The notes under the pieces are model-generated. The model made no database searches, was not told the origin of the DNA, and saw nothing but the letters and a program-made list of their open reading frames with translations. A DNA stretch of 53,315 nt from an uncultured archaeon (GTDB taxonomy: Archaea > Asgardarchaeota > Lokiarchaeia > Sigyniarchaeales > SOKP01). The stretch covers positions 1-53,315 of the forward strand of contig CAZOYD010000016.1 of NCBI GenBank assembly GCA_964583985.1, read 5' to 3'. Below, one piece after another: positions 33,456-45,467 of this stretch (position 1 is the stretch's first letter; the number at the start of each line of letters is the position of its first letter). Both the position numbers and the translations under genes were made by a program.

Positions 33456-34469
33456 TCACATTAATAATGTTTTAGCCATGTTAAAGGCATAATTATAGTC
33501 ATAAATTTTTAAACCCTTGGTTACCACAGCTTCCTTAAGAATTTCCCCTTCTACATTAGCTTTGAGGCGTCCTAACGCTAAAGCTCCAATTCCAAATATT
33601 GCCGGATAAATCTCATCATTATCGTGCTTAGGCTTTATTCCTTCAATACCATAGGGGGGAACTAAATTGATATCAACGACAATTTTCTTTTTACCATTTG
33701 AGATTCTTTCCATTAAGTTTCTAGGTAATATTTCAACTCCTGCTGCTGCTAATGACCAGATTACATCGGCGTCTTTGGCTATTTGATATCTATCTTCTGG
33801 ATCTGGAGCAAAAATTCCCTTAATTTGAGTAGCTTCCTTTCCTGCTTCTTCATTCAATCCCGTTACCAAATTCATCAAAATCTCTTCATTTGACTTATCC
33901 CAAGTCTCGACTACGAAAACTTGGCTCTCAAGTTTAGCACCCAATATTGCCGCTATTCTCGCTACAGGTCCCGCTCCAAATATGACTATTTTTTTACCTT
34001 TAATTGATTCAATTCCATGTATTTCTCGAAGATCATGAATAGTTTTAGCTACTACTGCCGACGCAGTTGTATGAGAACCCCTAGGATCAATAATAACAGG
34101 ACATTCGAAAGGAGGAACTAGTGATTTTACTACTTCTTTTGCTATTTTTTCGCCCTCCATTACATTTGATCCCCCTATAAAAAAAGTCGTTGGCGCTTTT
34201 GGTTTGCGGGAAAAAATGGCATCTTGAACAAGTTTAGGCACTTGATCAACTGTCATTTTACTTATAGGCACTACAATATCAAAACCAGCATCATATGCCA
34301 TATTAATGTCGAAGGGCGAAGCGATATCATCCGTATCAAAAAAGAAACATATTTTATCCGATAAATCAGCTTTTTTAATTTTAATTGGTGTTAATTCTAA
34401 TATCGTTTTTTTACCTAAAATACTCCCTATTTTACGTTCTATCTCTTTTTCTTCTGTAATTTTACTCAA
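33456..34469 (-). CDS. NAD(P)-dependent methylene-H4MPT/H4F dehydrogenase (MtdA/MtdB-like)
   Basis: SPFDINMAYDAG, VQDAIFSR, DPRGSHTTASAVV, GAGPVA, AAAGV, DINLVPPYGIEG, GIGALALGRLK. Confidence 0.85.
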   Translation of the reverse strand: MSKITEEKEIERKIGSILGKKTILELTPIKIKKADLSDKICFFFDTDDIASPFDINMAYDAGFDIVVPISKMTVDQVPKLVQDAIFSRKPKAPTTFFIGGSNVMEGEKIAKEVVKSLVPPFECPVIIDPRGSHTTASAVVAKTIHDLREIHGIESIKGKKIVIFGAGPVARIAAILGAKLESQVFVVETWDKSNEEILMNLVTGLNEEAGKEATQIKGIFAPDPEDRYQIAKDADVIWSLAAAGVEILPRNLMERISNGKKKIVVDINLVPPYGIEGIKPKHDNDEIYPAIFGIGALALGRLKANVEGEILKEAVVTKGLKIYDYNYAFNMAKTLLM

Positions 34470-34522: not shown

Positions 34523-35251
34523 TTATTTTGAAATTTCGATATCGTCTTCCATGACTTCTTCGATTTCTTCAGTTTTAATAGATCTTTTTATTTTAATTTG
34601 TTCAGTTTCAATTCCTAAGTCTGAAGCAAGTTTCTCCAATCCATTAAAGTGCCTTAAATCACAAAGAAAGAGCCCTTTCAGTTTTTTACCATCAATTGTC
34701 TTAGCAAGATTGGTAATATTCATCATCATCCATGCTTCCCTTACCTTATATCTTATTTCATTCTCTTCTGAATCGTAATCATTTTGTAAGTACTCTTTCC
34801 ACATAATTAAACGTTGAAAAAGTTCATCTTTTTCAGGGATCCCCCCATTTTTTTGAATAATTTCTTCAATTTTTGTCTTCAGAGATTTAAGCATGGTCCT
34901 ATGCTCATCCAAGGATGTTGACAAGTAAAATTCGGCATTTTCAGAGATATCGGCATGTCTGAAAGGAATATTTTTCTGTTCAAAGAGACGTTTTAGGGGA
35001 TCTTCATCAGGATTGGAAGGACCGTTCCAGAAATTTGGTTTTTCTTCTAAAGCAATATCTGGTTTATATTTTTCTATCAAGGATTCAATTAATTCTAAAT
35101 ATTCCTTGCTAATCAGATGCAAGTTCCAAATCAAATCTTCCTTCTTCTCTGCAGGCACCTCAAACCACCAATCAATTGGAAATTCAGATTCGATCATTAT
35201 AAGTTTAAGGTGTTTTTCTTTTAAAGGTTTTAATTCTAATACTTCTGGCAT
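34523..35251 (-). CDS. Hypothetical protein, possibly TraB/Tiki/ChaN-like fold
   Basis: KPDIALEE...IPFRHADI...REAWM...LFLCDLRHFNGL pattern; N-terminal EVLELKP. Confidence 0.6.
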   Translation of the reverse strand: MPEVLELKPLKEKHLKLIMIESEFPIDWWFEVPAEKKEDLIWNLHLISKEYLELIESLIEKYKPDIALEEKPNFWNGPSNPDEDPLKRLFEQKNIPFRHADISENAEFYLSTSLDEHRTMLKSLKTKIEEIIQKNGGIPEKDELFQRLIMWKEYLQNDYDSEENEIRYKVREAWMMMNITNLAKTIDGKKLKGLFLCDLRHFNGLEKLASDLGIETEQIKIKRSIKTEEIEEVMEDDIEISK

Positions 35252-35275: not shown

Positions 35276-35896
35276 TTAAAAAATCACATTTTGAATTAGA
35301 TGTTTTTTATTATAAGAAATTACTTTTGCATTTAATTCTCGCAAAAGTTGTACCACTTGTGGACAAATATCTTCACAAATATCTTCTTGTACGAAATGAA
35401 CAAATGAAATGGTATTTCCATCAAATTTCCTAGTCAAATCTAACATTTTTTTCACGATCCATTGTGGTCTTAATTTTAAACTTAAGAAGATCTCTAGATC
35501 TTGAATTTCGTCGCGAAGCATATCTATCCAATTTTTTAAACTCTGTCCTTTATATGACTCCTTATTTTCCATATTCTCAAATTCTTCAAATAATTCATTT
35601 AAAAACTCTTGTTTTGATGAAATTTCTTGATATAAATATCCCATTGCATATTCTGGGATATCTAATTGATAATATGGTATTTCCAATTTGTCTAATGTTT
35701 TAGCAAAAGGAGTTTTACTAAATTCTTCCATATCAACCTGAAAATCAACAGTTACAAAGTTGATATCTTTCTTTTTTAGAAATTCTTCAAGTTTGGATTT
35801 ATCCTCAGTTTGAAAATATTCTGAATCTTCTTTGGAGGACATGTATGAGATTACTTTCTTATTTTTTTTTATTGGTTTTAATTCTAATACTTCCAC
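35276..35896 (-). CDS. Hypothetical protein, diverged paralog of 34523-35251
   Basis: Shared EVLELKP, IP[YF]...DI.E.A..YL, W...L and K[LV]R..W segments; GTG start with GAGGTG upstream. Confidence 0.65.
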   Translation of the reverse strand: MEVLELKPIKKNKKVISYMSSKEDSEYFQTEDKSKLEEFLKKKDINFVTVDFQVDMEEFSKTPFAKTLDKLEIPYYQLDIPEYAMGYLYQEISSKQEFLNELFEEFENMENKESYKGQSLKNWIDMLRDEIQDLEIFLSLKLRPQWIVKKMLDLTRKFDGNTISFVHFVQEDICEDICPQVVQLLRELNAKVISYNKKHLIQNVIF

Positions 35897-35978
35897 TTTA
35901 AGCTACACCTCTTTATTGTTTATTTGAAAAGTAATTTTTATTCTAAATATAAAATCAATTGACTCTAATTTAAAAGAT

Positions 35979-36022
35979 TTGACAAGAAGAATTTTATTCA
36001 ATTTGATAATTTTACTTGTCAA
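35979..36022. promoter_or_regulatory. Inverted repeat in the divergent promoter region (candidate operator or hairpin)
   Basis: TTGACAAG (35979-35986) / CTTGTCAA (36015-36022), extendable to about 15-bp arms with two mismatches. Confidence 0.45.
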
Positions 36023-36206
36023 TTGTTAAATCTTAATTAATTGTGTAATCATGAGAATTCGTTAATGTGATGTAGAAATCTAATAAAATGATGATCAGTT
36101 TCTTACATAAGTTTTTAAATTTAGATAATAATAAATATCATGATGGAAAAAAAATTTGTCAAAAAATTGAAATCACAATTAAAATTATCTATGGAGCAAA
36201 AAAACA

Positions 36207-38756
36207 ATGGACGTATATTCCATTTTATCCCATCCGTTTAGACGAAAAATTTTATATCTCTTGGAAAGAGAAGGATATATTCAATACTCAGAGATTATGG
36301 ACAAGCTTGGGTTGGATTTAACCGGACAATTGAATTTTCATTTAAAAAAACTTGGATCATTGATTGGTAAAGAGAGAAAATCCTATTATTTAACAGAGGA
36401 TGGTAAAAGAATCCTTAGCATGTTAAATTTAAATGATCGCATCTTAGCAGGAGAAGAAATAGAGCATTTAATCTCGAAGGGTAGTGATATAAATAGAATC
36501 GGTGTTATTGTGTGTAATTGTAATGAAGAAATTTCAAATATTATAAATGTAAATAGTCTTACTCACGATTTATCTCATCTTAAAAATGTAGTTTCAGTAA
36601 GAATTTTTGAGAATTTATGTCAAGAAATAAATTTAGAAAAGGTTGCTAATTGGGTTAAAGAAAATTTCTTAAATAAGATTGTAATTGCTGCTTGTTCTCC
36701 AAAGAGTCATAAGCACATATTTGAACTTATGTTTGAAGATATCGTTGAATATGTAAATATTGAATTTGCTAATATTAGGGAACAATGTTGTTGGGCGCAT
36801 CAACAGCATGATCATGAAACCCAAATGAATCCTCTAAATCTCGCTTTTAAAGCATTTTTACTAATAGAAGCAGCAGTAGTAAGAGTAAACCTTCAAGGAG
36901 CCGTTAAAATTAAGCGGATAGAAGTGGAAAAATCCTGTGCTATATTTGGAGGGGGCATAGCAGGAATGAATTTAGCATTAAATTTAGCTCGTGCTGGAAT
37001 TAAAGTTTATTTAATTGAAAAATCTCCTACTCTTGGAGGTAAAGTTGCTCGTTGGCATCGAATATCTAATATGGGAGACTGTTCAATTTGTTTGATATCT
37101 GAGTTGATAGGAGAAATTGTTAAGAGAGATGATATTGAAGTTCATACTAATGTTGAAATCAATAAAATATCAGGAGAAGTCGGAAATTTCATAATAGAAC
37201 TTATTAAAAAACCAAGATACGTGGATGAAAAACGATGTACTGGATGTTCGCAATGCACTGAAATATGTGGAAATGAAACTCTTAATGAATATGAATTTGG
37301 ATTAACAAAAAGAAAGGTAATTCATTTTCCATTCTCTAATTGTTATCCTTACGTGCCATTAATTACTGATCAGGATATTGAAAAGTGTAGAGAATGTAGG
37401 ATATGTGAAAGAGCATGCTTGAATAAAGTTATAAATTTAGATCAGAAACCAGAAAATTTCCAGATTAAGGTTGGAGCTAAAGTGATGGCAACAGGAGCAG
37501 ATTTATTTTTCAATTTGGATGAATATGGTTATGATCCTTCAAAGAACATTATAACTTCAGCCGAATTTGAACGAATGTTATCTTCAGATGGCTTAACTGG
37601 AGGGAAATTAGTTCGTCTATCAGATAATCAGCCAATCAACTCACTTTCGATAATTCAAGAAATTGGTCCATCTGATTATGTTTGTGAATTTACTGATGAC
37701 GTAGCTCTCAAATATCTTGAAGAAATTAGTATTAGAAATCCAGAATGTGAAGTGAATATTTTTTATGATTTATCTAAACTAAAAGATAATCAAGAACTTT
37801 TACTCCGTTTCATACATCCTAATTTTCTATATGCAAATAATGTCAGTGTAGAAATTGGAAACAGAATTAATTATGTTATAGCCGATTACATTGAGTTTCC
37901 AAGTGATTTAATTGTTTTAAACCAAAAGATTATCCCAAATAAAGATCTAGTTAATCTTCGAAATACATTAGATTTTACGCTTGACGATAATGGTTTTATG
38001 AGCAAGGAAACGCTCGCATCAGGCGTTTATGGAGTAGGATCCATTTTAGGACCTATGAATTATCAATCTACCATTTCTTCAGCAAACACAGTGGCTTTAA
38101 AGATAATATCGCTCCTATCAAATGATTATTTAATTGCGGCTTTTACTGGCATTAATTTAAATGAGGAAAAATGTGGTTTATGTGGTCTATGTATAAAATC
38201 GTGTCCGTTTAATGCGATAGGTATCGATTCTAATAAAGTTAAAATTGATCGATTTAAATGCAAGGGTTGTGGCTCTTGTGTGAGTTCTTGTCCAACAGGA
38301 GCTTTAGAAATGAATATTGATACAACAGAGAAAATTTTGAGAACAATTGACGTATTTTCAAAATTCAAAATTGGCCCCAAAATTCTCATATTTGCATGTG
38401 AATCATGTGGTTATGCTGCTGCGGATATTGCTGGGTTTAAGAAATTAAGCTATCCTCCAAATGTCTTTATAATAAAAGTACCCTGTGCAGGAAGGGTTGA
38501 TACTGAATTTATCCTTTATTCACTCAAATGTGGATTTGATGGTATAATGGTTGTAGGGTGTAGAGAAAATGCCTGCAATTATATTGATGGTATAACACAA
38601 GCAGAGAATAGAATTGAGCTTTTAAAGAAAAATTTCGAGCCAGAAATTCGTAAACGCATAAAAATATTAAAATTGAATTCAATTGAAGGGAAAAAGTTTT
38701 CTGATAGTGTGAACGAGTTCCATAAATTCTTATCGATAGAGGTTGATAATCATTAA
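36207..38756 (+). CDS. Winged helix-turn-helix - HdrA-like flavoprotein - MvhD fusion
   Basis: N-terminal LSHPFRRKIL...LNFHLKKL...YYLTEDG (ArsR-like wHTH); HdrA motifs IAACSP, NIREQCCWAH, GGGIAG, EKSPTLGG, EFERML and ferredoxin inserts; C-terminal MvhD YAAADIAG, PCAGRVD, GFDG..VVGC....C.Y. Confidence 0.88.
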   Translation: MDVYSILSHPFRRKILYLLEREGYIQYSEIMDKLGLDLTGQLNFHLKKLGSLIGKERKSYYLTEDGKRILSMLNLNDRILAGEEIEHLISKGSDINRIGVIVCNCNEEISNIINVNSLTHDLSHLKNVVSVRIFENLCQEINLEKVANWVKENFLNKIVIAACSPKSHKHIFELMFEDIVEYVNIEFANIREQCCWAHQQHDHETQMNPLNLAFKAFLLIEAAVVRVNLQGAVKIKRIEVEKSCAIFGGGIAGMNLALNLARAGIKVYLIEKSPTLGGKVARWHRISNMGDCSICLISELIGEIVKRDDIEVHTNVEINKISGEVGNFIIELIKKPRYVDEKRCTGCSQCTEICGNETLNEYEFGLTKRKVIHFPFSNCYPYVPLITDQDIEKCRECRICERACLNKVINLDQKPENFQIKVGAKVMATGADLFFNLDEYGYDPSKNIITSAEFERMLSSDGLTGGKLVRLSDNQPINSLSIIQEIGPSDYVCEFTDDVALKYLEEISIRNPECEVNIFYDLSKLKDNQELLLRFIHPNFLYANNVSVEIGNRINYVIADYIEFPSDLIVLNQKIIPNKDLVNLRNTLDFTLDDNGFMSKETLASGVYGVGSILGPMNYQSTISSANTVALKIISLLSNDYLIAAFTGINLNEEKCGLCGLCIKSCPFNAIGIDSNKVKIDRFKCKGCGSCVSSCPTGALEMNIDTTEKILRTIDVFSKFKIGPKILIFACESCGYAAADIAGFKKLSYPPNVFIIKVPCAGRVDTEFILYSLKCGFDGIMVVGCRENACNYIDGITQAENRIELLKKNFEPEIRKRIKILKLNSIEGKKFSDSVNEFHKFLSIEVDNH

Positions 38757-39507
38757 ATTTAAAATTTTAATCATTTCGATGACATCGTGCAGTGGTTGTA
38801 TATCTACTTTATTTTCTTTAGATATTTTTCCTCAATTCCTTGAAAAAACAAAAATTGCTTATTTTCCCTATATTACCGATGAGGAAAAGTTAGAGAGTTA
38901 TGATATGGCTTTGATTGAAGGATGTATAATTCAAGAAAGTCAGATTCAACTCATTCAAGAGATTCGGAGGGTTGCAAAGAAAATTTATTTATTAGGTTCT
39001 TGTGCTGCTTTTGGAGGTATGATAAACCTTTCGGAAAAGAAGAGAGGAGATCCTATCTCAAATTATATTGAAGTTGATGGTATAATTCCTGGGTGTCCTC
39101 CTCCTTCGAACTTATTCGGAAATTGTTTGATGGATCTTTTAGAAAATAAAATGATTAAATTATCAAATAGAAATCAATGTTACTCCTGTCCACTTAGAGA
39201 AAGTCTAGACTATGAATTTAAAACTAAGATTACAAAGCTAATCCCAAGTAATAGAGATATTAACTCTGCTCAAAATCCCAAATGTTTCTTATCTCAAGGT
39301 GTATTATGCCTTGGACCAGTGACAAGAGAGGGATGTGAAAACAAGTGCATTATCAAAGGAATGCCATGTGAAAGTTGCTTAGGTCCTCCTTCAAAAAGTT
39401 CGTGCGCTAATATCTATAACTTTCTAAGCCTACTTGACATATCAATTGAGTTAAAAACATATGAAGGAATCTTTTTTAGATATTCAAAACCAATAATTAA
39501 AAGGTGA
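38743..39507 (+). CDS. [NiFe]-hydrogenase small subunit, MvhG-like
   Basis: SCSGC, IEG, GSCAAFGG, PGCPP, CYSCP, CFLSQGVLCLGPVTREGCENKC...PCESCLGP; no Tat signal. Confidence 0.88.
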   Translation: MIIIKFKILIISMTSCSGCISTLFSLDIFPQFLEKTKIAYFPYITDEEKLESYDMALIEGCIIQESQIQLIQEIRRVAKKIYLLGSCAAFGGMINLSEKKRGDPISNYIEVDGIIPGCPPPSNLFGNCLMDLLENKMIKLSNRNQCYSCPLRESLDYEFKTKITKLIPSNRDINSAQNPKCFLSQGVLCLGPVTREGCENKCIIKGMPCESCLGPPSKSSCANIYNFLSLLDISIELKTYEGIFFRYSKPIIKR

Positions 39508-40808
39508 TTAAATTACAAAAAATTGTTGAGCCGTGCAAGAGAATAGAAGGAAATGCAAATATTAAAATACTGCTAAGGGGAGAAAACATTGATCATGTTG
39601 AATTCGTGATCCCTGAAGTTAGAGGGTTTGAAAATATCCTCATGAATAAAAAAACTCAAGATATTCCTAGAATTGTATCGCGAATATGTGGACTATGTCA
39701 TGCTTCTCAAGCAATAGTTAGCAACAAAGCTATCGAAGACATTTATGGGATTAATCCACCAACTCAATCAATAATTTTAAGGAGAATTTTATTAATTGGA
39801 GAATTAATTAAATCTCATGTAATGCATTTCTTTTTTCAATCTTTCCCAGACCTTTTGAAATTAATTAATCTTCAAGAAATATCTAATCCCTATGATTTAA
39901 TGCAATTTGATCCTCATTTGACTTCAAATGTATTTGATTTAATTAAATTAGGTTCAGAAATAGATAAAATCTTTGGTGGTCGATATGTACATTTAATCAG
40001 TTGCATCTCTGGTGGTGTTATATATCATCCTTCACAAATTAACATCAATTTAGTGAGAAAATTACTACAAAAAGGATCTAATAATGCAAAATACTTAATT
40101 GAAACCTTTATAAAACTATTTTCAAGCAAAACTCCGCCTAGTTCATTCGATCTTCCTAAGTTAAATTATTTAGGACTTTCAAACCAAGGTGCTTATGATA
40201 GATATTCCGGAGATATTGTTGTGAAAAATTATAAAAATCAATTAAATTTTCATGAAAAAGATTACCAATCCTATTTTGATAAAGATATTGAAGTGTTTGG
40301 AGTCAGTTTTCATCAAATCGATGATATGGGAGTTATTACAGGTCCAATCGCGAGAGATAATATAAATAAAATTTCAACTAAAGAAAGAATTACCCCATAT
40401 TTTGACAAGATTAATGAAAATTGGAAAAACTCAATTCTTTATCAAAATTTTTTGGAATTAATCGAAGTTGATCATGAAATCCATGAATGTCTCAAATTAT
40501 TAAATGAAAATTCGTTATACGAACGGAGTGATTTACCTGATTTAGGTGAAATTCAAAAATTAGAAGGAATAGGAATGCTTGAGGCCCCACGTGGTTTTTT
40601 ATTGCATCATTATAAAATAAATCAAGATGAGACCGTAATTCAAGCAAAATTATTTATTGCTACTGAAATCAACATTCCTCTCTTAAATTTCATGACATCA
40701 AAATATGCCCATTATTTGCATAAAAATGAGGAAATCGATAAGGTTAGAAAAGAAATAATCCAAATGATAAGAGCGTTTGATCCATGCATATCATGCGCAT
40801 CACACTAA
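39504..40808 (+). CDS. [NiFe]-hydrogenase large subunit, MvhA/group 3-like, atypical
   Basis: RIEG, RGFE, RICGLC, EAPRG, DPCISCASH*; all four Ni-Fe Cys ligands present. Confidence 0.9.
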   Translation: MIKLQKIVEPCKRIEGNANIKILLRGENIDHVEFVIPEVRGFENILMNKKTQDIPRIVSRICGLCHASQAIVSNKAIEDIYGINPPTQSIILRRILLIGELIKSHVMHFFFQSFPDLLKLINLQEISNPYDLMQFDPHLTSNVFDLIKLGSEIDKIFGGRYVHLISCISGGVIYHPSQININLVRKLLQKGSNNAKYLIETFIKLFSSKTPPSSFDLPKLNYLGLSNQGAYDRYSGDIVVKNYKNQLNFHEKDYQSYFDKDIEVFGVSFHQIDDMGVITGPIARDNINKISTKERITPYFDKINENWKNSILYQNFLELIEVDHEIHECLKLLNENSLYERSDLPDLGEIQKLEGIGMLEAPRGFLLHHYKINQDETVIQAKLFIATEINIPLLNFMTSKYAHYLHKNEEIDKVRKEIIQMIRAFDPCISCASH

Positions 40809-40823
40809 TATAGGATTTACATC

Positions 40824-41852
40824 ATGCTAAAGGAGGAGATGAACATCAACGTATTTGAAGATCATAAAAAAATATTCATCAATATGAAAAATAAAATCCA
40901 AGAAGGAGATTTTTCTTTAGGAAATCTCTGTGAGATTTTTATACTTACTGTTGATGAAGCTCTTGGTCGCCTCATTCTTTTAATTTATCCTGATGATTCA
41001 ATTAAGGACGATCTTGAAAAAATCCGAATAATTAATATTCATCCTATATGGCATATCGAGGTTAGTGAGCTTAATGGCTTTGATCCCCTCGTGATTGAAT
41101 GTGGTAAGAGAATTTGCTATGGTTATAAATTTGTATTTCGAAAAGTTATAAGAAAAAAAATTGAAGAAATCATCATCATTCTATCATTACCTTTAGAATT
41201 AGAGATTTTAGGTTTTAATCTTTTAAAAATGATAGTTGATTGGATCATTGGCTCTTATAGTGATAGAATATATAAAATTATTGAATCAGAAATTACTAAA
41301 TTTAAAGCTGTGAAAACCCAAAATATGATAGAAATAATTAGACAGGGAGTTGACTTGAAAGAAACGCTCCTAAATGAGTTAAAAAAAACCTGCACGGAAT
41401 ATTTTTCTTACATTATTAAAATACTAGATGATACAAAAATTAATTCACAGAAAGCTTTATCTCTCTTAATGTTAAAAGGTATAAACCTAACAAATTCCAC
41501 ATTAAAAAGAAATGATACTGATATTGGACATTTTAGAATTAGCCCTTCTGAACAAGAAATTGAAGAATTTTTCTCAATTCATTCTATTAACGTTATTCAG
41601 AACCATAATGAATTTGAAGTCTCAATTCAAAATATATCCAATGATGAATTGAACGATGTAAACGTGAGGATTATTTATATCTTGAATTTTGTTGAACACG
41701 ATATTATTAATGTAGATCTTGATTACTGGTTTTCTGAAGAAAGAATAATCTTCACTGTTCCAATTAAGTCTTTAAATAATGATTTTTTTATCTTTATTTC
41801 AGATAATAATATGAAAAGAACTTTATTCTCGAGAAAAGTCTCTCTTTTATGA
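40824..41852 (+). CDS. Hypothetical protein with possible uDENN/longin-like N-terminal and Ig-like C-terminal domains
   Basis: IFILTVDEALGRLILLIYP resembles the uDENN/NPRL-type longin start; FEVSIQNISNDELNDVNVRI is Ig-like; 15 nt after the hydrogenase stop. Confidence 0.5.
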   Translation: MLKEEMNINVFEDHKKIFINMKNKIQEGDFSLGNLCEIFILTVDEALGRLILLIYPDDSIKDDLEKIRIINIHPIWHIEVSELNGFDPLVIECGKRICYGYKFVFRKVIRKKIEEIIIILSLPLELEILGFNLLKMIVDWIIGSYSDRIYKIIESEITKFKAVKTQNMIEIIRQGVDLKETLLNELKKTCTEYFSYIIKILDDTKINSQKALSLLMLKGINLTNSTLKRNDTDIGHFRISPSEQEIEEFFSIHSINVIQNHNEFEVSIQNISNDELNDVNVRIIYILNFVEHDIINVDLDYWFSEERIIFTVPIKSLNNDFFIFISDNNMKRTLFSRKVSLL

Positions 41853-41897: not shown

Positions 41898-42458
41898 TTA
41901 TTTTCTTGTTTTCAACCAATCTTCCTTTAATATTGAATAAACGTAAGTATCTTCATATTTTCCATTAATATATGCGTCCTTTTTTAAAACTGCCTCACGA
42001 GTTAATCCATTTTTTTCAGCACATTTCCAAGACGCGATATTTGGAGTAAAAATGTAACCATATAGCTTATGAAAATTCAATTCTTTAAATCCGTAATCAA
42101 TCAATAAGGAAGTGGCTTCGGTTGCATACGCTTGTCCCCAATACTCTGGTTCTCCAATTTGCAATCCCATTACACAGATGCGATCAAACCACCTTATATT
42201 ATGATATCCACAATTCCCAATAGCCTTATTATCAGTATTATGCCAGATCTCCATAATTATTTCATTTTTAACGCCTCCATCTATCGATTCAAAAAATTGC
42301 TTGAACCTTTCGATTGTTTTAGGTTCAGCATTTCGAGCATAAACACGCACACGGATATCATTTTCCCAGGCTGCGTATTGCTCTACGTGATCACTATTTA
42401 AAGGAGCTAATGAAATTGTTTCACCTCGTATGAACACCATTGGTTTATCTTCAGTCAT
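41898..42458 (-). CDS. GNAT acetyltransferase, RimJ/RimL-like (6 of 6)
   Basis: IGEPEYWGQAYATEA, FKELNFHK, PNIASWK..EKNG, DAYINGKYED. Confidence 0.9.
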   Translation of the reverse strand: MTEDKPMVFIRGETISLAPLNSDHVEQYAAWENDIRVRVYARNAEPKTIERFKQFFESIDGGVKNEIIMEIWHNTDNKAIGNCGYHNIRWFDRICVMGLQIGEPEYWGQAYATEATSLLIDYGFKELNFHKLYGYIFTPNIASWKCAEKNGLTREAVLKKDAYINGKYEDTYVYSILKEDWLKTRK

Positions 42459-42501
42459 TTTTGTTTTTCTCCTAATTTAGTCTAATTTTAAACATTAAAT
42501 T

Positions 42502-43098
42502 CTAAATATTAATTTTTAACCAATCTTTTTTCAACATTCGATATTTTCGAGCATCAATATATTGCCCATTTATAAAAATCGTTTTCTTTTGAATACCTTC
42601 AAGGATAAATCCATCCTTTTCTGCCACACTCCATGAACCGATATTAGGTTCAAAAATACCAGCATAGATTTTATGAAAATTGAGTTCTTTGAAACCATAA
42701 TTAATCAATAAACGGGATGCTTCAGTCCCCAAATTCTTATTCCAATATTGAGGTAGACCTATACTCATGAAAATATTTGCGTTCCTGCTAATCCAATTAA
42801 TACGACCAAAACCACAAGTACCAATGGGTACTTTATCTCTTTTATGCCAGATTTCAAATGTAATATAATCTGATAAACCTCTTCTTTCACTAGGCTCAAA
42901 CCACTTTGTTATATCCTCTACAGTGTGAGGTCTGTTATTGCGTGCGTAAATTCTAGCTTTAGAATCATTTACCCATTTAGCATACAATTTTATGTGATCC
43001 AAATTCGGTGGACATAAATCTATGTTCTCCCCTTCAATAAAAGGATAAGCGACGTGTTCTTTTTCTTTTATTTCTTCACTATTCAATTCTTCTTTCAC
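42502..43098 (-). CDS. GNAT acetyltransferase, RimJ/RimL-like (5 of 6)
   Basis: YWNKNLGTEA, PNIGSWSVAEK; start moved to GTG 43098, which gives a GTGA overlap with the upstream stop. Confidence 0.88.
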   Translation of the reverse strand: MKEELNSEEIKEKEHVAYPFIEGENIDLCPPNLDHIKLYAKWVNDSKARIYARNNRPHTVEDITKWFEPSERRGLSDYITFEIWHKRDKVPIGTCGFGRINWISRNANIFMSIGLPQYWNKNLGTEASRLLINYGFKELNFHKIYAGIFEPNIGSWSVAEKDGFILEGIQKKTIFINGQYIDARKYRMLKKDWLKINI

Positions 43099-43688
43099 TT
43101 CCCTAATTGTAATAATTCTTTTCTCTTTTCTATCCATTCATCATAAAAGATGCAATATTCATATTCGTCTACATATTTTCCATCTACCCATGCTTGTTCT
43201 TGATAAACCAAAGCGCGTTGCATGCCTAATTTTTCAGCTACTTTCCAAGAGCCTACATTGACTTCATACATTCCACACCCAATTTTAAACATGTTCAATT
43301 CGTTAAAACCATATTCAATAATTAATGCTGCTGCTTCTGTTCCTAAATCTTTATTTCGGTACTCTTGTTCTCCAATCACCATGCCTATATTTGCACTTCT
43401 ATCTGACCAATTAATATGATTAAATCCAACATATCCAATGATTTTTTTGTCATTTTTATGCCAGATTTCGAATTGCATTTCACTAGGGGTTCCTATTTTC
43501 AATTCTTCAATCCATTTTTTATATTCCTCCGTTGAAATTGGGAACATATTTCGAGCATAGTGTCTGGTTTCTTGATCGTTATCCCATTTAACATATAAAT
43601 TTAGATGATCAAGATTATTCCCAGGTAAAAGATCGACATTTTTTCCATTAATAAACGTTCTAATATCTTCAGGTTCCATTATGTTCAT
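43095..43688 (-). CDS. GNAT acetyltransferase, RimJ/RimL-like (4 of 6)
   Basis: IGEQEYRNKDLGTEA, NVGSWKVAEKLG. Confidence 0.9.
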   Translation of the reverse strand: MNIMEPEDIRTFINGKNVDLLPGNNLDHLNLYVKWDNDQETRHYARNMFPISTEEYKKWIEELKIGTPSEMQFEIWHKNDKKIIGYVGFNHINWSDRSANIGMVIGEQEYRNKDLGTEAAALIIEYGFNELNMFKIGCGMYEVNVGSWKVAEKLGMQRALVYQEQAWVDGKYVDEYEYCIFYDEWIEKRKELLQLGK

Positions 43689-44275
43689 ATCTCCTCATCT
43701 ATTTTTAAATTGAGCCAATCTTTTTTGAACACTGCAAATTTATGATTATCCACATAAACTCCATCTTTATAAATTTCTTCTCTTAAAACTACTTCTTGAA
43801 CCAAACCTATTTTAATAGCAGTCTTTAAAGCACGTTCGTCAGGAGAATAAATATTGGTGCAAACCTTGTGAAGGTTTAGTTCTTCAAATGCATAAGTAAT
43901 CATCAATTTACTCGCTTCAACCCCAATTCCTTTTCCCCAATATTCAGGTTCTCCAATTACTGTCAAAAGGTTAGCATTTCGATCTAACCATTGAATATCA
44001 GTCAAACCAACCATTCCAATCGTTTTCTCATCATTTTTGAGATAAATGAGAAAATGAACATCAGTTTTCATCTCATCTTTTTTCGGTTCGAACAATTTTT
44101 TTATTTCTTCGATGGTTGTTGGGAGAGGATACCTAGTGTAGGTACGAACATCGGGATCATTCATCCAACGGACAACGAGTTTGATATCTTCTTGAACTAT
44201 AGGAGTTAAGTTAATCCGATCTCCTTTTATAAACTCCATTATTGGTATATCTTCTTTAACTTCCATTTTATTCAC
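43685..44275 (-). CDS. GNAT acetyltransferase, RimJ/RimL-like (3 of 6)
   Basis: IGEPEYWGKGIGVEA, AFEELNLHK. Confidence 0.9.
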   Translation of the reverse strand: MNKMEVKEDIPIMEFIKGDRINLTPIVQEDIKLVVRWMNDPDVRTYTRYPLPTTIEEIKKLFEPKKDEMKTDVHFLIYLKNDEKTIGMVGLTDIQWLDRNANLLTVIGEPEYWGKGIGVEASKLMITYAFEELNLHKVCTNIYSPDERALKTAIKIGLVQEVVLREEIYKDGVYVDNHKFAVFKKDWLNLKIDEEI

Positions 44276-44292
44276 GACTTCAAGAACTTTTC

Positions 44293-44868
44293 TTATTTTT
44301 TTGTAGCTTCTTTATATTTAATTATCCAATCATCTTGAAAAATACAATAACAATAATCATTTATATATTCACCATCAATAAATGCATTGTTTTTAAGAGT
44401 GGCTTCCCTTTCCATACCCAATCGTTCACAAACTTTCCATGAACCTATATTTGGGCTATAAATCATTGTTCTTATCTTGTACATGTTTAGTTCACCAAAA
44501 CCATAATTGAGCAATAACATTCCAGCTTCAGTTGCTATTCCTTTTCCCCAATATTGCATCTCTCCTATGGTAACTGATATGTTGGCTCTTCTATATGCAT
44601 AGCGGATGTTGTTAATTTCCGCTAATCCTATTGCTTTATAATCTTCCCTATGAAAAATTTCAAAATGGACATTATCCTCAATGCTCCATCCCTTGGGTTC
44701 GAATAATTTTTTAAACAATTCTACTGTAGTAGGAAACTCATTTCGTGCATATTTCCTAATCTCAGGATCATTCTGCCATTTTACATATAATTTGATATGA
44801 TCTGAATCCAATGGTACCAGATCTATTTTATCTCCTTTTATAAACGCTTTATCATTGACTTTACTCAT
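44293..44868 (-). CDS. GNAT acetyltransferase, RimJ/RimL-like (2 of 6)
   Basis: YWGKGIATEA, PNIGSWKVCERLG. Confidence 0.9.
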   Translation of the reverse strand: MSKVNDKAFIKGDKIDLVPLDSDHIKLYVKWQNDPEIRKYARNEFPTTVELFKKLFEPKGWSIEDNVHFEIFHREDYKAIGLAEINNIRYAYRRANISVTIGEMQYWGKGIATEAGMLLLNYGFGELNMYKIRTMIYSPNIGSWKVCERLGMEREATLKNNAFIDGEYINDYCYCIFQDDWIIKYKEATKK

Positions 44869-45467
44869 AATTTTTCTCCCCGACTATTGTTTTCTGCTTT
44901 CTTCTTAAACCAATCGCTTTTTAAATATCCATAACGTTTTTCATCCCGGTATACACCATCAACATATTTCTGCTCTCTCAGAATGCCTTCAAGTTTAAAA
45001 CCGACTTTTTCCGCAACAGTCCAAGAGCCTACATTTTCTACTACAACTGTTCCACTTACTTTATTTAAATTTAGTTCTTCGAAAGCATATTTTAATAGAA
45101 GTTCCGTTGCTTCTGTAGCAATATTTTTATTCCAATATTCCATCTCGCCAATATTTGCATAGGCGTTTGCCCATCCATTAATCCAGTTAATTCTGCTTAG
45201 TCCAATTTCACCAATTGGTTTTTTATCTTTTATATGATAGATAATGAAACCTGCCCACTCGCTTAAACCTCCTGTTACTCGAGATTCAAACCTTTTTTTC
45301 ATTTGATCTATTGAGCTTGGGAGGGGTCCACGTAAAAATGTCCTGTTTTTTGGACTGTTTACCCACTTACATCGTAATTCGATCCATTCTGATCTATTTA
45401 CGACTAGATTAATATTTTCTCCTTTAATAAAAGGCAATGGTTCACTTTTTTGCTTATCTGTTGACAT
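44865..45467 (-). CDS. GNAT acetyltransferase, RimJ/RimL-like (1 of 6)
   Basis: YWNKNIATEA, ENVGSWTVAEKVGFKLEG. Confidence 0.9.
   Translation of the reverse strand: MSTDKQKSEPLPFIKGENINLVVNRSEWIELRCKWVNSPKNRTFLRGPLPSSIDQMKKRFESRVTGGLSEWAGFIIYHIKDKKPIGEIGLSRINWINGWANAYANIGEMEYWNKNIATEATELLLKYAFEELNLNKVSGTVVVENVGSWTVAEKVGFKLEGILREQKYVDGVYRDEKRYGYLKSDWFKKKAENNSRGEKL

Follow-up and report, generated by a model that had tools for sequence, protein, structure and literature searches.

The window analysed here, 53,315 nucleotides (nt) of contig C16 from the 3.8-Mb genome (31.6% GC) of an uncultured lokiarchaeial archaeon (Asgardarchaeota; Sigyniarchaeales) whose closest homologues bear the names Promethearchaeota/Lokiarchaeota, carries a three-gene operon whose first gene joins a DNA-binding winged helix-turn-helix (wHTH) domain to HdrA and MvhD and is followed by mvhG- and mvhA-like hydrogenase genes (Table 1). 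A first-pass annotation had read the leading gene as an ArsR-like wHTH, HdrA and MvhD in one frame of 849 amino acids (aa), and Pfam, PDB matches and the predicted fold confirmed this order within a single open frame. Residues 2-72 match Pfam DUF7347 (E = 1.3e-10, passing its cut-off), HdrA spans residues 97-714 (PDB 5odc_A, E = 1e-101), and Pfam FlpD/MvhD occupies residues 726-840. The AlphaFold model (mean predicted local distance difference test, pLDDT, of 85.9) displayed a well-formed winged helix and the HdrA/MvhD folds, with a disordered linker at residues 84-94, and Foldseek comparison with HdrA structures gave template modelling scores of 0.78-0.84. The overlapping mvhG- and mvhA-like genes described behind the fusion were likewise recovered by PDB matches to 5odc_E and 5odc_F. 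As had also been claimed, hdrB and hdrC are missing from the operon and the window; no CCG/HdrB match was found on the contig, and both genes lie elsewhere in the genome. The HdrA-MvhD fusion alone is already known as type Ia/HdrA2 (NF040770; PMC12054007).

Table 1. Features of the fusion operon and of the divergent operon in the window.
Feature	Position	Strand	Basis and remarks
MtdA-like NAD(P)-dependent methylene-tetrahydromethanopterin/tetrahydrofolate dehydrogenase, predicted main target	33456..34469	-	Pfam Mpt_N; PDB 6tge/1lu9, E ~2e-28
X2, an X1 paralogue that is in many genomes fused to the MtdA-like protein	34523..35251	-	weak TraB/ChaN-like fold lead
X1, 206-aa protein, first gene of predicted target operon	35276..35896	-	homologue loci
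Putative TATA of X1-X2-mtdA operon	35968..35975	-	consensus; conserved distance from operator
Second, weaker operator, ending just upstream of minus-strand TATA	35980..35997	.	position weight matrix (PWM), score 7.6
Strong palindromic operator, upstream of X1-X2-mtdA TATA	36004..36021	.	top intergenic PWM match in 3.8-Mb genome
Putative TATA of fusion operon	36112..36119	+	inferred
Two tandem operator-like sites just past TATA	36123..36161	.	PWM; 36123-36140 (6.3, weak) and 36144-36161 (12.5)
wHTH-HdrA-MvhD fusion gene	36207..38756	+	849 aa; Pfam, PDB matches, homologues, AlphaFold model
DUF7347/ArsR-like winged helix, residues 1-80	36207..36446	+	Pfam; 1y0u profile match; pLDDT ~86-90; predicted dimer, ipSAE 0.46
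HdrA moiety; N-terminal cluster, FAD site, E455/K502, Cys292/295 and both ferredoxin modules kept	36495..38351	+	alignments, PDB 5odc_A
Eroded HA4 [4Fe-4S] motif, exit from FAD toward HdrBC	37656..37697	+	alignments; HA4 role from PMC13580544
MvhD moiety; its five Cys do not vary among 120 homologues	38376..38726	+	Pfam, alignment
MvhG-like small subunit; Fe-S motifs kept clade-wide; overlaps fusion stop	38743..39507	+	best PDB match in 5odc_E/5odc_F set
MvhA-like large subunit	39504..40808	+	4-nt overlap with mvhG; best PDB matches in 5odc_E/5odc_F set

An assembly chimera was ruled out by the recurrence of the wHTH-HdrA junction, the first 110 residues of the fusion matching 119 of the 399 genomes of the Asgard phylum, a count over related carriers that are therefore not independent. 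A singleton was ruled out as well, with more than 100 independent 90% clusters sharing the architecture at 59-87% identity. The N-terminus was found in 89 of 133 genomes of the home family and also in families f2, f4, f5, f6, f19, f21, f28, and f31, and in none of the 14 genomes of family f3, to which the cultured-type closed genomes searched belong; f5 and f6 probably correspond to Helarchaeales, f19 to Hermodarchaeia, and f31 to Thorarchaeia. The fusion-mvhG-mvhA order is retained in nearly all Asgard loci read and also in Bathyarchaeia, so that both the architecture and its conserved synteny, when sought in archaeal genomes, extend over several Asgard classes and Bathyarchaeia. At four loci (L060-L062, L066) the aligned start of the fusion has no ATG, GTG, or TTG, the codon there being ATA or ACG, and one genome (G278, L157) encodes a truncated 640-aa wHTH-HdrA protein without MvhD, distant from its own mvhGA genes (L053).

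A profile search with the wHTH matched the ArsR-type structure 1y0u (E = 2.4e-6); a profile was needed, as the single-sequence PDB search returned DARPin noise plus 1y0u at E = 0.012. No other part of the operon is as well conserved as the wHTH, whose identity over 12 relatives is 72%, compared with 64% for HdrA, 55% for MvhD, 54% for MvhG, and 48% for MvhA. Residues G40, H45, R12, K55, and Y60 are invariant across classes, the recognition helix is conserved, and residues 1-90 contain no Cys. A homodimer was predicted through residues 2-13 and 68-85 with an interface score (ipSAE) of 0.46, compared with 0.01 for the best control, at pLDDT 85 and with at least 82% of contacts shared between runs; the mark for this score was passed by 20 of 30 solved dimers and 1 of 23 monomers, and the value may partly reflect similarity to solved ArsR dimers. 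The wHTH fold and pairing via the first and last helices, both as predicted, agree with an ArsR-like winged helix. The first-pass annotation expected HdrA dimerisation to supply the wHTH dimer; by prediction, the wHTH would pair without help from HdrA.

A motif search from random seeds in the upstream regions of 38 loci recovered an 18-bp palindrome, TGAYAA-N6-TTRTCA, with an information content of 13.9, compared with 7.6-8.3 in shuffled controls that used fewer seeds. Its position differs between the two divergent promoters, being downstream of the TATA element at the fusion promoter and upstream of it at X1-X2-mtdA. For archaeal regulators, a site behind the TATA element is the position of a repressor and a site in front of it that of an activator. 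In genera g11 and g12, about 9 kb of hdr genes part the fusion from the divergent X1-X2-mtdA operon, and the box stands at both promoters; in f19 and f31, X2-mtdA lies downstream of mvhA, and again both promoters carry it. Rearrangement constitutes the strongest test of the link between operator and fusion. In one genome (G123; L040, L158) the operon itself is split, with the fusion divergent from metV-metF, mvhG-mvhA on another contig, and a site at both promoters.

Scoring of held-out promoters was consistent with this picture. Among X/mtd promoters not adjoining a fusion, 17 of 19 scored at least 14, and the two below this value belong to genomes without the fusion; fusion promoters reached it in 10 of 19 cases, and other promoters in 13 of 342, nearly all of them belonging to a leader gene of the fusion operon, X paralogues, or detached mvhGA. 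The X-mtdA promoters of four fusion-less genomes had no palindrome, nor was any found upstream of other DUF7347 genes, and in genome G119 the sole perfect site in 3.8 Mb is at the fusion promoter. In Bathyarchaeia (L176:4313, 15070) a perfect variant of the box lies just before the TATA-like elements of two transcription units, a 179-aa gene and a gcvH-nuoEFG-like operon whose last gene is of the hydrogenase-small-subunit/ferredoxin type, and at these loci it was not seen at the start of the fusion itself. A genome G257, which appeared to have sites without a fusion, was rejected as a counter-example because its contig breaks off just past the frhB-like leader gene, at the point where a fusion gene would be expected to begin. 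Such an frhB-like (F420-binding) gene heads the fusion operon, behind the operator, in genus g12 (L059:3695-4813, L067, L070, L074, L077). The co-distribution of palindrome and fusion suggests that the palindrome near its own promoter is a candidate operator of the fusion wHTH.

A search for a large regulon by PWM across the genome of the window returned only two intergenic matches of at least 14. The second-best intergenic site (G000:C5:73553, L178) lies 126 nt before metV-metF. In the predicted target operon, X1 and X2 share an N-terminal motif, and X1 is mostly not found in genomes without the fusion. X2 had no match in Pfam, and its leads are weak (atlas TraB/GumN, 0.84; best structural Z 8.5-9, to CbiL and ChaN). 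The apparent regulatory targets, judged from promoter sequence, are genes of one-carbon (C1) metabolism and not the main hydrogenase, unlike those of HoxBC.

Alignment of the HdrA and MvhD moieties revealed which parts of the electron path are preserved. The Cys residues of the 292/295 pair, of MvhD, of the two ferredoxin modules, and of the N-terminal cluster show little or no variation across 120 homologues, and E455, K502, C292, and C295 are invariant in 97 sequences. The HdrA part claimed for the fusion is not canonical: all members have a rewritten DKTFPT stretch and a deleted 8-residue loop. HA4, by way of which the high-potential electron travels from flavin adenine dinucleotide (FAD) to HdrB (PMC13580544), has lost its four ligands in the studied genome and in f1, f4, f5, and f6, and most of them in f21. 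The fusion also scores far under the NCBIfam cut-offs (557 against 1100 and 138 against 800). With the Cys and FAD residues kept and HA4 gone, the electron input and the branch toward ferredoxin survive, and the exit to the heterodisulfide is lost in the Lokiarchaeia/Helarchaeales lineage.

The MvhA-like subunit keeps the four metal-binding Cys, Glu15, the Arg of EAPRG, and the final His, and its best matches are group 3c, 3b, and 3d enzymes. Four residues past the second Cys of motif L1, however, it carries Gln (Gln69), as do 53 of 53 Lokiarchaeia/Helarchaeales sequences, compared with His in 21 of 21 canonical enzymes. The C-terminal tail is absent (0 aa) in 46 of 46 family members; its length is 0 in f1 and f5 and 5-13 aa in deeper families, and canonical large subunits mostly have 20-32 aa. 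Plasmid pHG1, read directly, encodes a sensor HoxC with Gln67 and no tail and a respiratory HoxG with His82 and a 15-aa tail. At the position that we take to line the gas channel (HoxC Phe110, HoxG Leu125), the studied MvhA has Gln and f21 has Phe. Loss of the tail is not exclusive to sensors, as a few other enzymes are without it (PMC8229454). In four f28 large subunits (L050-L052, L054), L2 ends in Val and not His, and Lys replaces Arg in L1.

The hydrogenase phylogeny, a quick tree built without reference groups 2, 3a, and 3b, placed the fusion-linked large subunits on one side of a single branch, apart from canonical group 3 (Shimodaira-Hasegawa-like approximate likelihood-ratio support of 86), and MvhA is the least conserved and fastest-evolving operon member (48% compared with 72% for the wHTH). 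The genome also contains a conventional vhuG-vhuA-vhuU-hdrC-hdrB cluster, along with HypD and a maturation protease, so that the hydrogenase beside the fusion is a second, divergent one. In that cluster (G000:C43, ~2150-2300; L181) a small vhuU-like open frame after vhuA carries the selenocysteine codon TGA in frame where the L2 metal ligand is expected, and it precedes hdrC and hdrB; four HdrA genes (C11, C13, C23, C60) each appear broken at about the same internal position, which probably reflects selenocysteine read-through as well. Taken together, Gln69, the missing tail, the loss of HA4, and the separate metabolic hydrogenase support a sensor-like character of the hydrogenase beside the fusion.

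These observations suggest that the operon specifies a one-component regulator, gated by redox state and connected to a hydrogenase of its own, a reading to which we assign a probability of about two in three. The more specific proposal, a group-3c-derived H2 sensor that acts without a kinase and, through an HdrA-MvhD partner that itself binds DNA, translates H2 partial pressure directly into C1-gene activation and autorepression, has in our judgement roughly even odds. It would then be a device ancient enough to be common to several Asgard classes and Bathyarchaeia, and its active-site marks would have converged on those of the bacterial sensors. The H2-sensing transcription complex put forward by the first-pass annotation is well supported by comparative evidence in its transcription-factor part, from the recognition helix, the predicted dimer, and the travelling operator, and is supported also for a sensor-like hydrogenase; H2 is the presumed input, with ferredoxin, F420, or general redox state as alternatives.

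The cofactor chain from NiFe through MvhG, MvhD, and the Cys pair to FAD is intact in sequence, and H2 would reduce it in this order. Through a dedicated and probably slow hydrogenase, H2 would thereby determine how far FAD and the Fe-S clusters are reduced. With HA4 gone, electrons would stay or leave slowly via the shuttle cluster to ferredoxin, the likely route of reoxidation. The wHTH would be held by the flexible linker to the N-terminal domain of HdrA, the seat of the shuttle cluster on the mobile arm, and in Mvh-Hdr this domain shifts between states (PMC13580544). Tethered to a moving domain, the wHTH could be gated by arm motion or by a change of oligomer, such that redox-linked movement makes or breaks the DNA-binding dimer. 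The dimer would bind the palindrome, repress its own operon, and activate the methylene-dehydrogenase operon. Sequence shows the anatomy of the complex, its conservation, and the distribution of the operator; that it binds DNA, in which direction it acts, how fast it turns over, and what it senses are inferences.

Several observations weigh against the redox-gated regulator. Residues equivalent to K409 and E356, which stabilise the bifurcating flavin and have been put forward as hallmarks of a bifurcating HdrA (PMC12054007), do not vary in the fusion family, where they are K502 and E455. HA4 is kept in f19, f28, f31, and Bathyarchaeia, and the L1 His in three deep Asgard families. Thorarchaeia-like MvhA (L143-L145, L150) has Gly in place of the Glu of RxEG, with the four Cys and the operator kept, and without this proton-transfer Glu it is a poor fit with true H2 turnover there. 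At the DNA level, f28 has the operon yet only weak sites at its promoters, the PWM found no site before the metabolic vhu genes, and metVF promoters score at least 12 in 4 of 7 genomes without a detected fusion and in 9 of 19 cases from fusion genomes, so that a different regulator may recognise a box of this kind. The relatedness of the carriers, which lowers the weight of counts over genomes, belongs here too.

An alternative is that the complex is a trigger enzyme like PutA, a working metabolic H2:ferredoxin enzyme (or a bifurcating one in the deep lineages) whose main job is catalysis and which also regulates its own and neighbouring genes. The catalytic Cys, Glu15, the EAPRG Arg, the FAD motifs, and E455/K502 are all kept, HA4 is intact in deep lineages, hdrBC genes are available in trans, and an frhB-like gene leads the operon in one genus. 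The invariant K409/E356 equivalents and ferredoxin-side clusters and the deep-lineage HA4 speak against a loss of catalysis. We nevertheless consider the trigger enzyme unlikely, given that the hydrogenase is the fastest-evolving part of the operon, HA4 is lost in the studied genome, MvhA is tail-less with a HoxC-like Gln, and a conventional Vhu-HdrBC is separately encoded. Somewhat less likely still is a transcription factor reading another signal, such as the ferredoxin/F420 pool, the thiol/disulfide state at Cys292/295, or how far MvhA, lacking its tail, is loaded with Ni; the hydrogenase would then be structural or vestigial. The lost Glu in Thorarchaeia-like MvhA, the lost final His in f28, the frhB-like leader in genus g12, and targets that are C1 redox enzymes and not hydrogenases would suit it, whereas the presence of mvhG and mvhA behind the fusion in nearly every locus read in two phyla, the retention of a site by both parts after their separation in G123, and the intact active site in the Lokiarchaeia lineage speak against it.

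That the palindrome belongs to a different regulator, the wHTH serving only protein contacts or non-specific DNA tethering, appears improbable. Similar boxes at metVF promoters of genomes without a detected fusion and perfect matches at low frequency in fusion-less genomes fit that idea, and it is opposed by the box-free X-mtdA promoters of the four fusion-less genomes, the box at the fusion promoter across classes, its absence upstream of other DUF7347 genes, and the conserved recognition helix. A membrane-bound complex was suggested by Seitz et al. (2019), who described in Helarchaeota a "possible energy-transferring complex" with membrane electron transfer (PMC6478937, Fig. 5) that is very probably the same gene cluster. 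Their transmembrane predictions speak for it. Against it, the modelled fusion consists of soluble HdrA/MvhD folds from end to end, soluble MvhG and MvhA are what the remaining subunits match, and the wHTH and operator would be left unaccounted for; we regard a membrane complex as highly improbable. A text search of that article and its supplement gave no mention of a DNA-binding domain.

Comparison with characterised systems placed the fusion between several of them. With MvhAGD-HdrABC (group 3c; 5ODC, 8RVU; PMC13580544) and type Ia HdrA2 it shares homologous subunits and folds, the input wire, the FAD site with K409/E356 equivalents, and, in the case of HdrA2, the HdrA-MvhD fusion; it differs from them in its added N-terminal wHTH, the absence of hdrBC in cis, the loss of HA4 in Lokiarchaeia/Helarchaeales, the tail-less MvhA with Gln in L1, the rewritten DKTFPT stretch, and the deleted loop. 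With group 2b HoxBC/HupUV, which act with HoxJ-HoxA (PMC8229454, PMC5037454), it has in common a second, dedicated hydrogenase, Gln at the L1 position, and the missing tail. In contrast to group 2b, it would link to transcription without kinase or response regulator, through a DNA-binding domain inside the complex and toward C1 targets; no histidine kinase or response regulator gene was conserved in or beside the operon at the loci read. Given the group 3c ancestry of MvhA, the HoxC-like marks are presumably convergent. By sequence, the system falls outside MvhAGD-HdrABC on account of HA4 and the tail and outside group 2b on account of ancestry and kinase. SurR of Thermococcales and MsvR of methanogens (PMC7278568) are also archaeal wHTH regulators with redox-dependent DNA binding, SurR both activating and repressing, but they use Cys thiol switches, whereas the fusion wHTH is Cys-free and wired to FAD, Fe-S clusters, and a hydrogenase. 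PutA (PMC6978683) is likewise a flavoenzyme with its own DNA-binding domain that represses its own operon; the proteins are unrelated, and the fusion system is a metalloenzyme of several subunits that probably acts as an activator too and shows signs of lowered catalysis. By analogy, its logic would be that of a sensor hydrogenase and its output that of SurR or PutA.

In HydDB, sensory [NiFe] enzymes are confined to group 2 (2b kinase-linked, 2c putatively cyclase-linked; PMC5037454). The first-pass annotation had not recognised the architecture as described, and our literature search, with subscription journals outside its range, agreed in finding no published account of a wHTH-HdrA-MvhD fusion or of a DNA-binding hydrogenase complex. 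The fusion system is thus a real, widespread, and undescribed regulatory variant, although its parts and general logic have precedents in sensory hydrogenases, trigger enzymes, and SurR. Where its genes are annotated as a metabolic group 3c hydrogenase and HdrA, reconstructions of metabolism may be inflated. Hydrogen-based models of eukaryote origin give Asgard archaea a central place, and the system supplies a defined protein, operator, and target operon with which the coupling of H2 to gene expression in anaerobic archaea could be tested.

Two neighbouring features of the window lie beyond mvhA. A 342-aa gene (40824-41852, forward strand) begins 15 nt past it; many members of the family have a gene in the same place, although identity is only about 30%. 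Its own protein family, from Promethearchaeota, is unnamed, and a match to the Arg repressor was weak and below the cut-off. On the reverse strand, positions 41898-45467 hold six tandem paralogous genes of about 190 aa, the first encoding a GNAT acetyltransferase, and the array is kept in L001 and L002.

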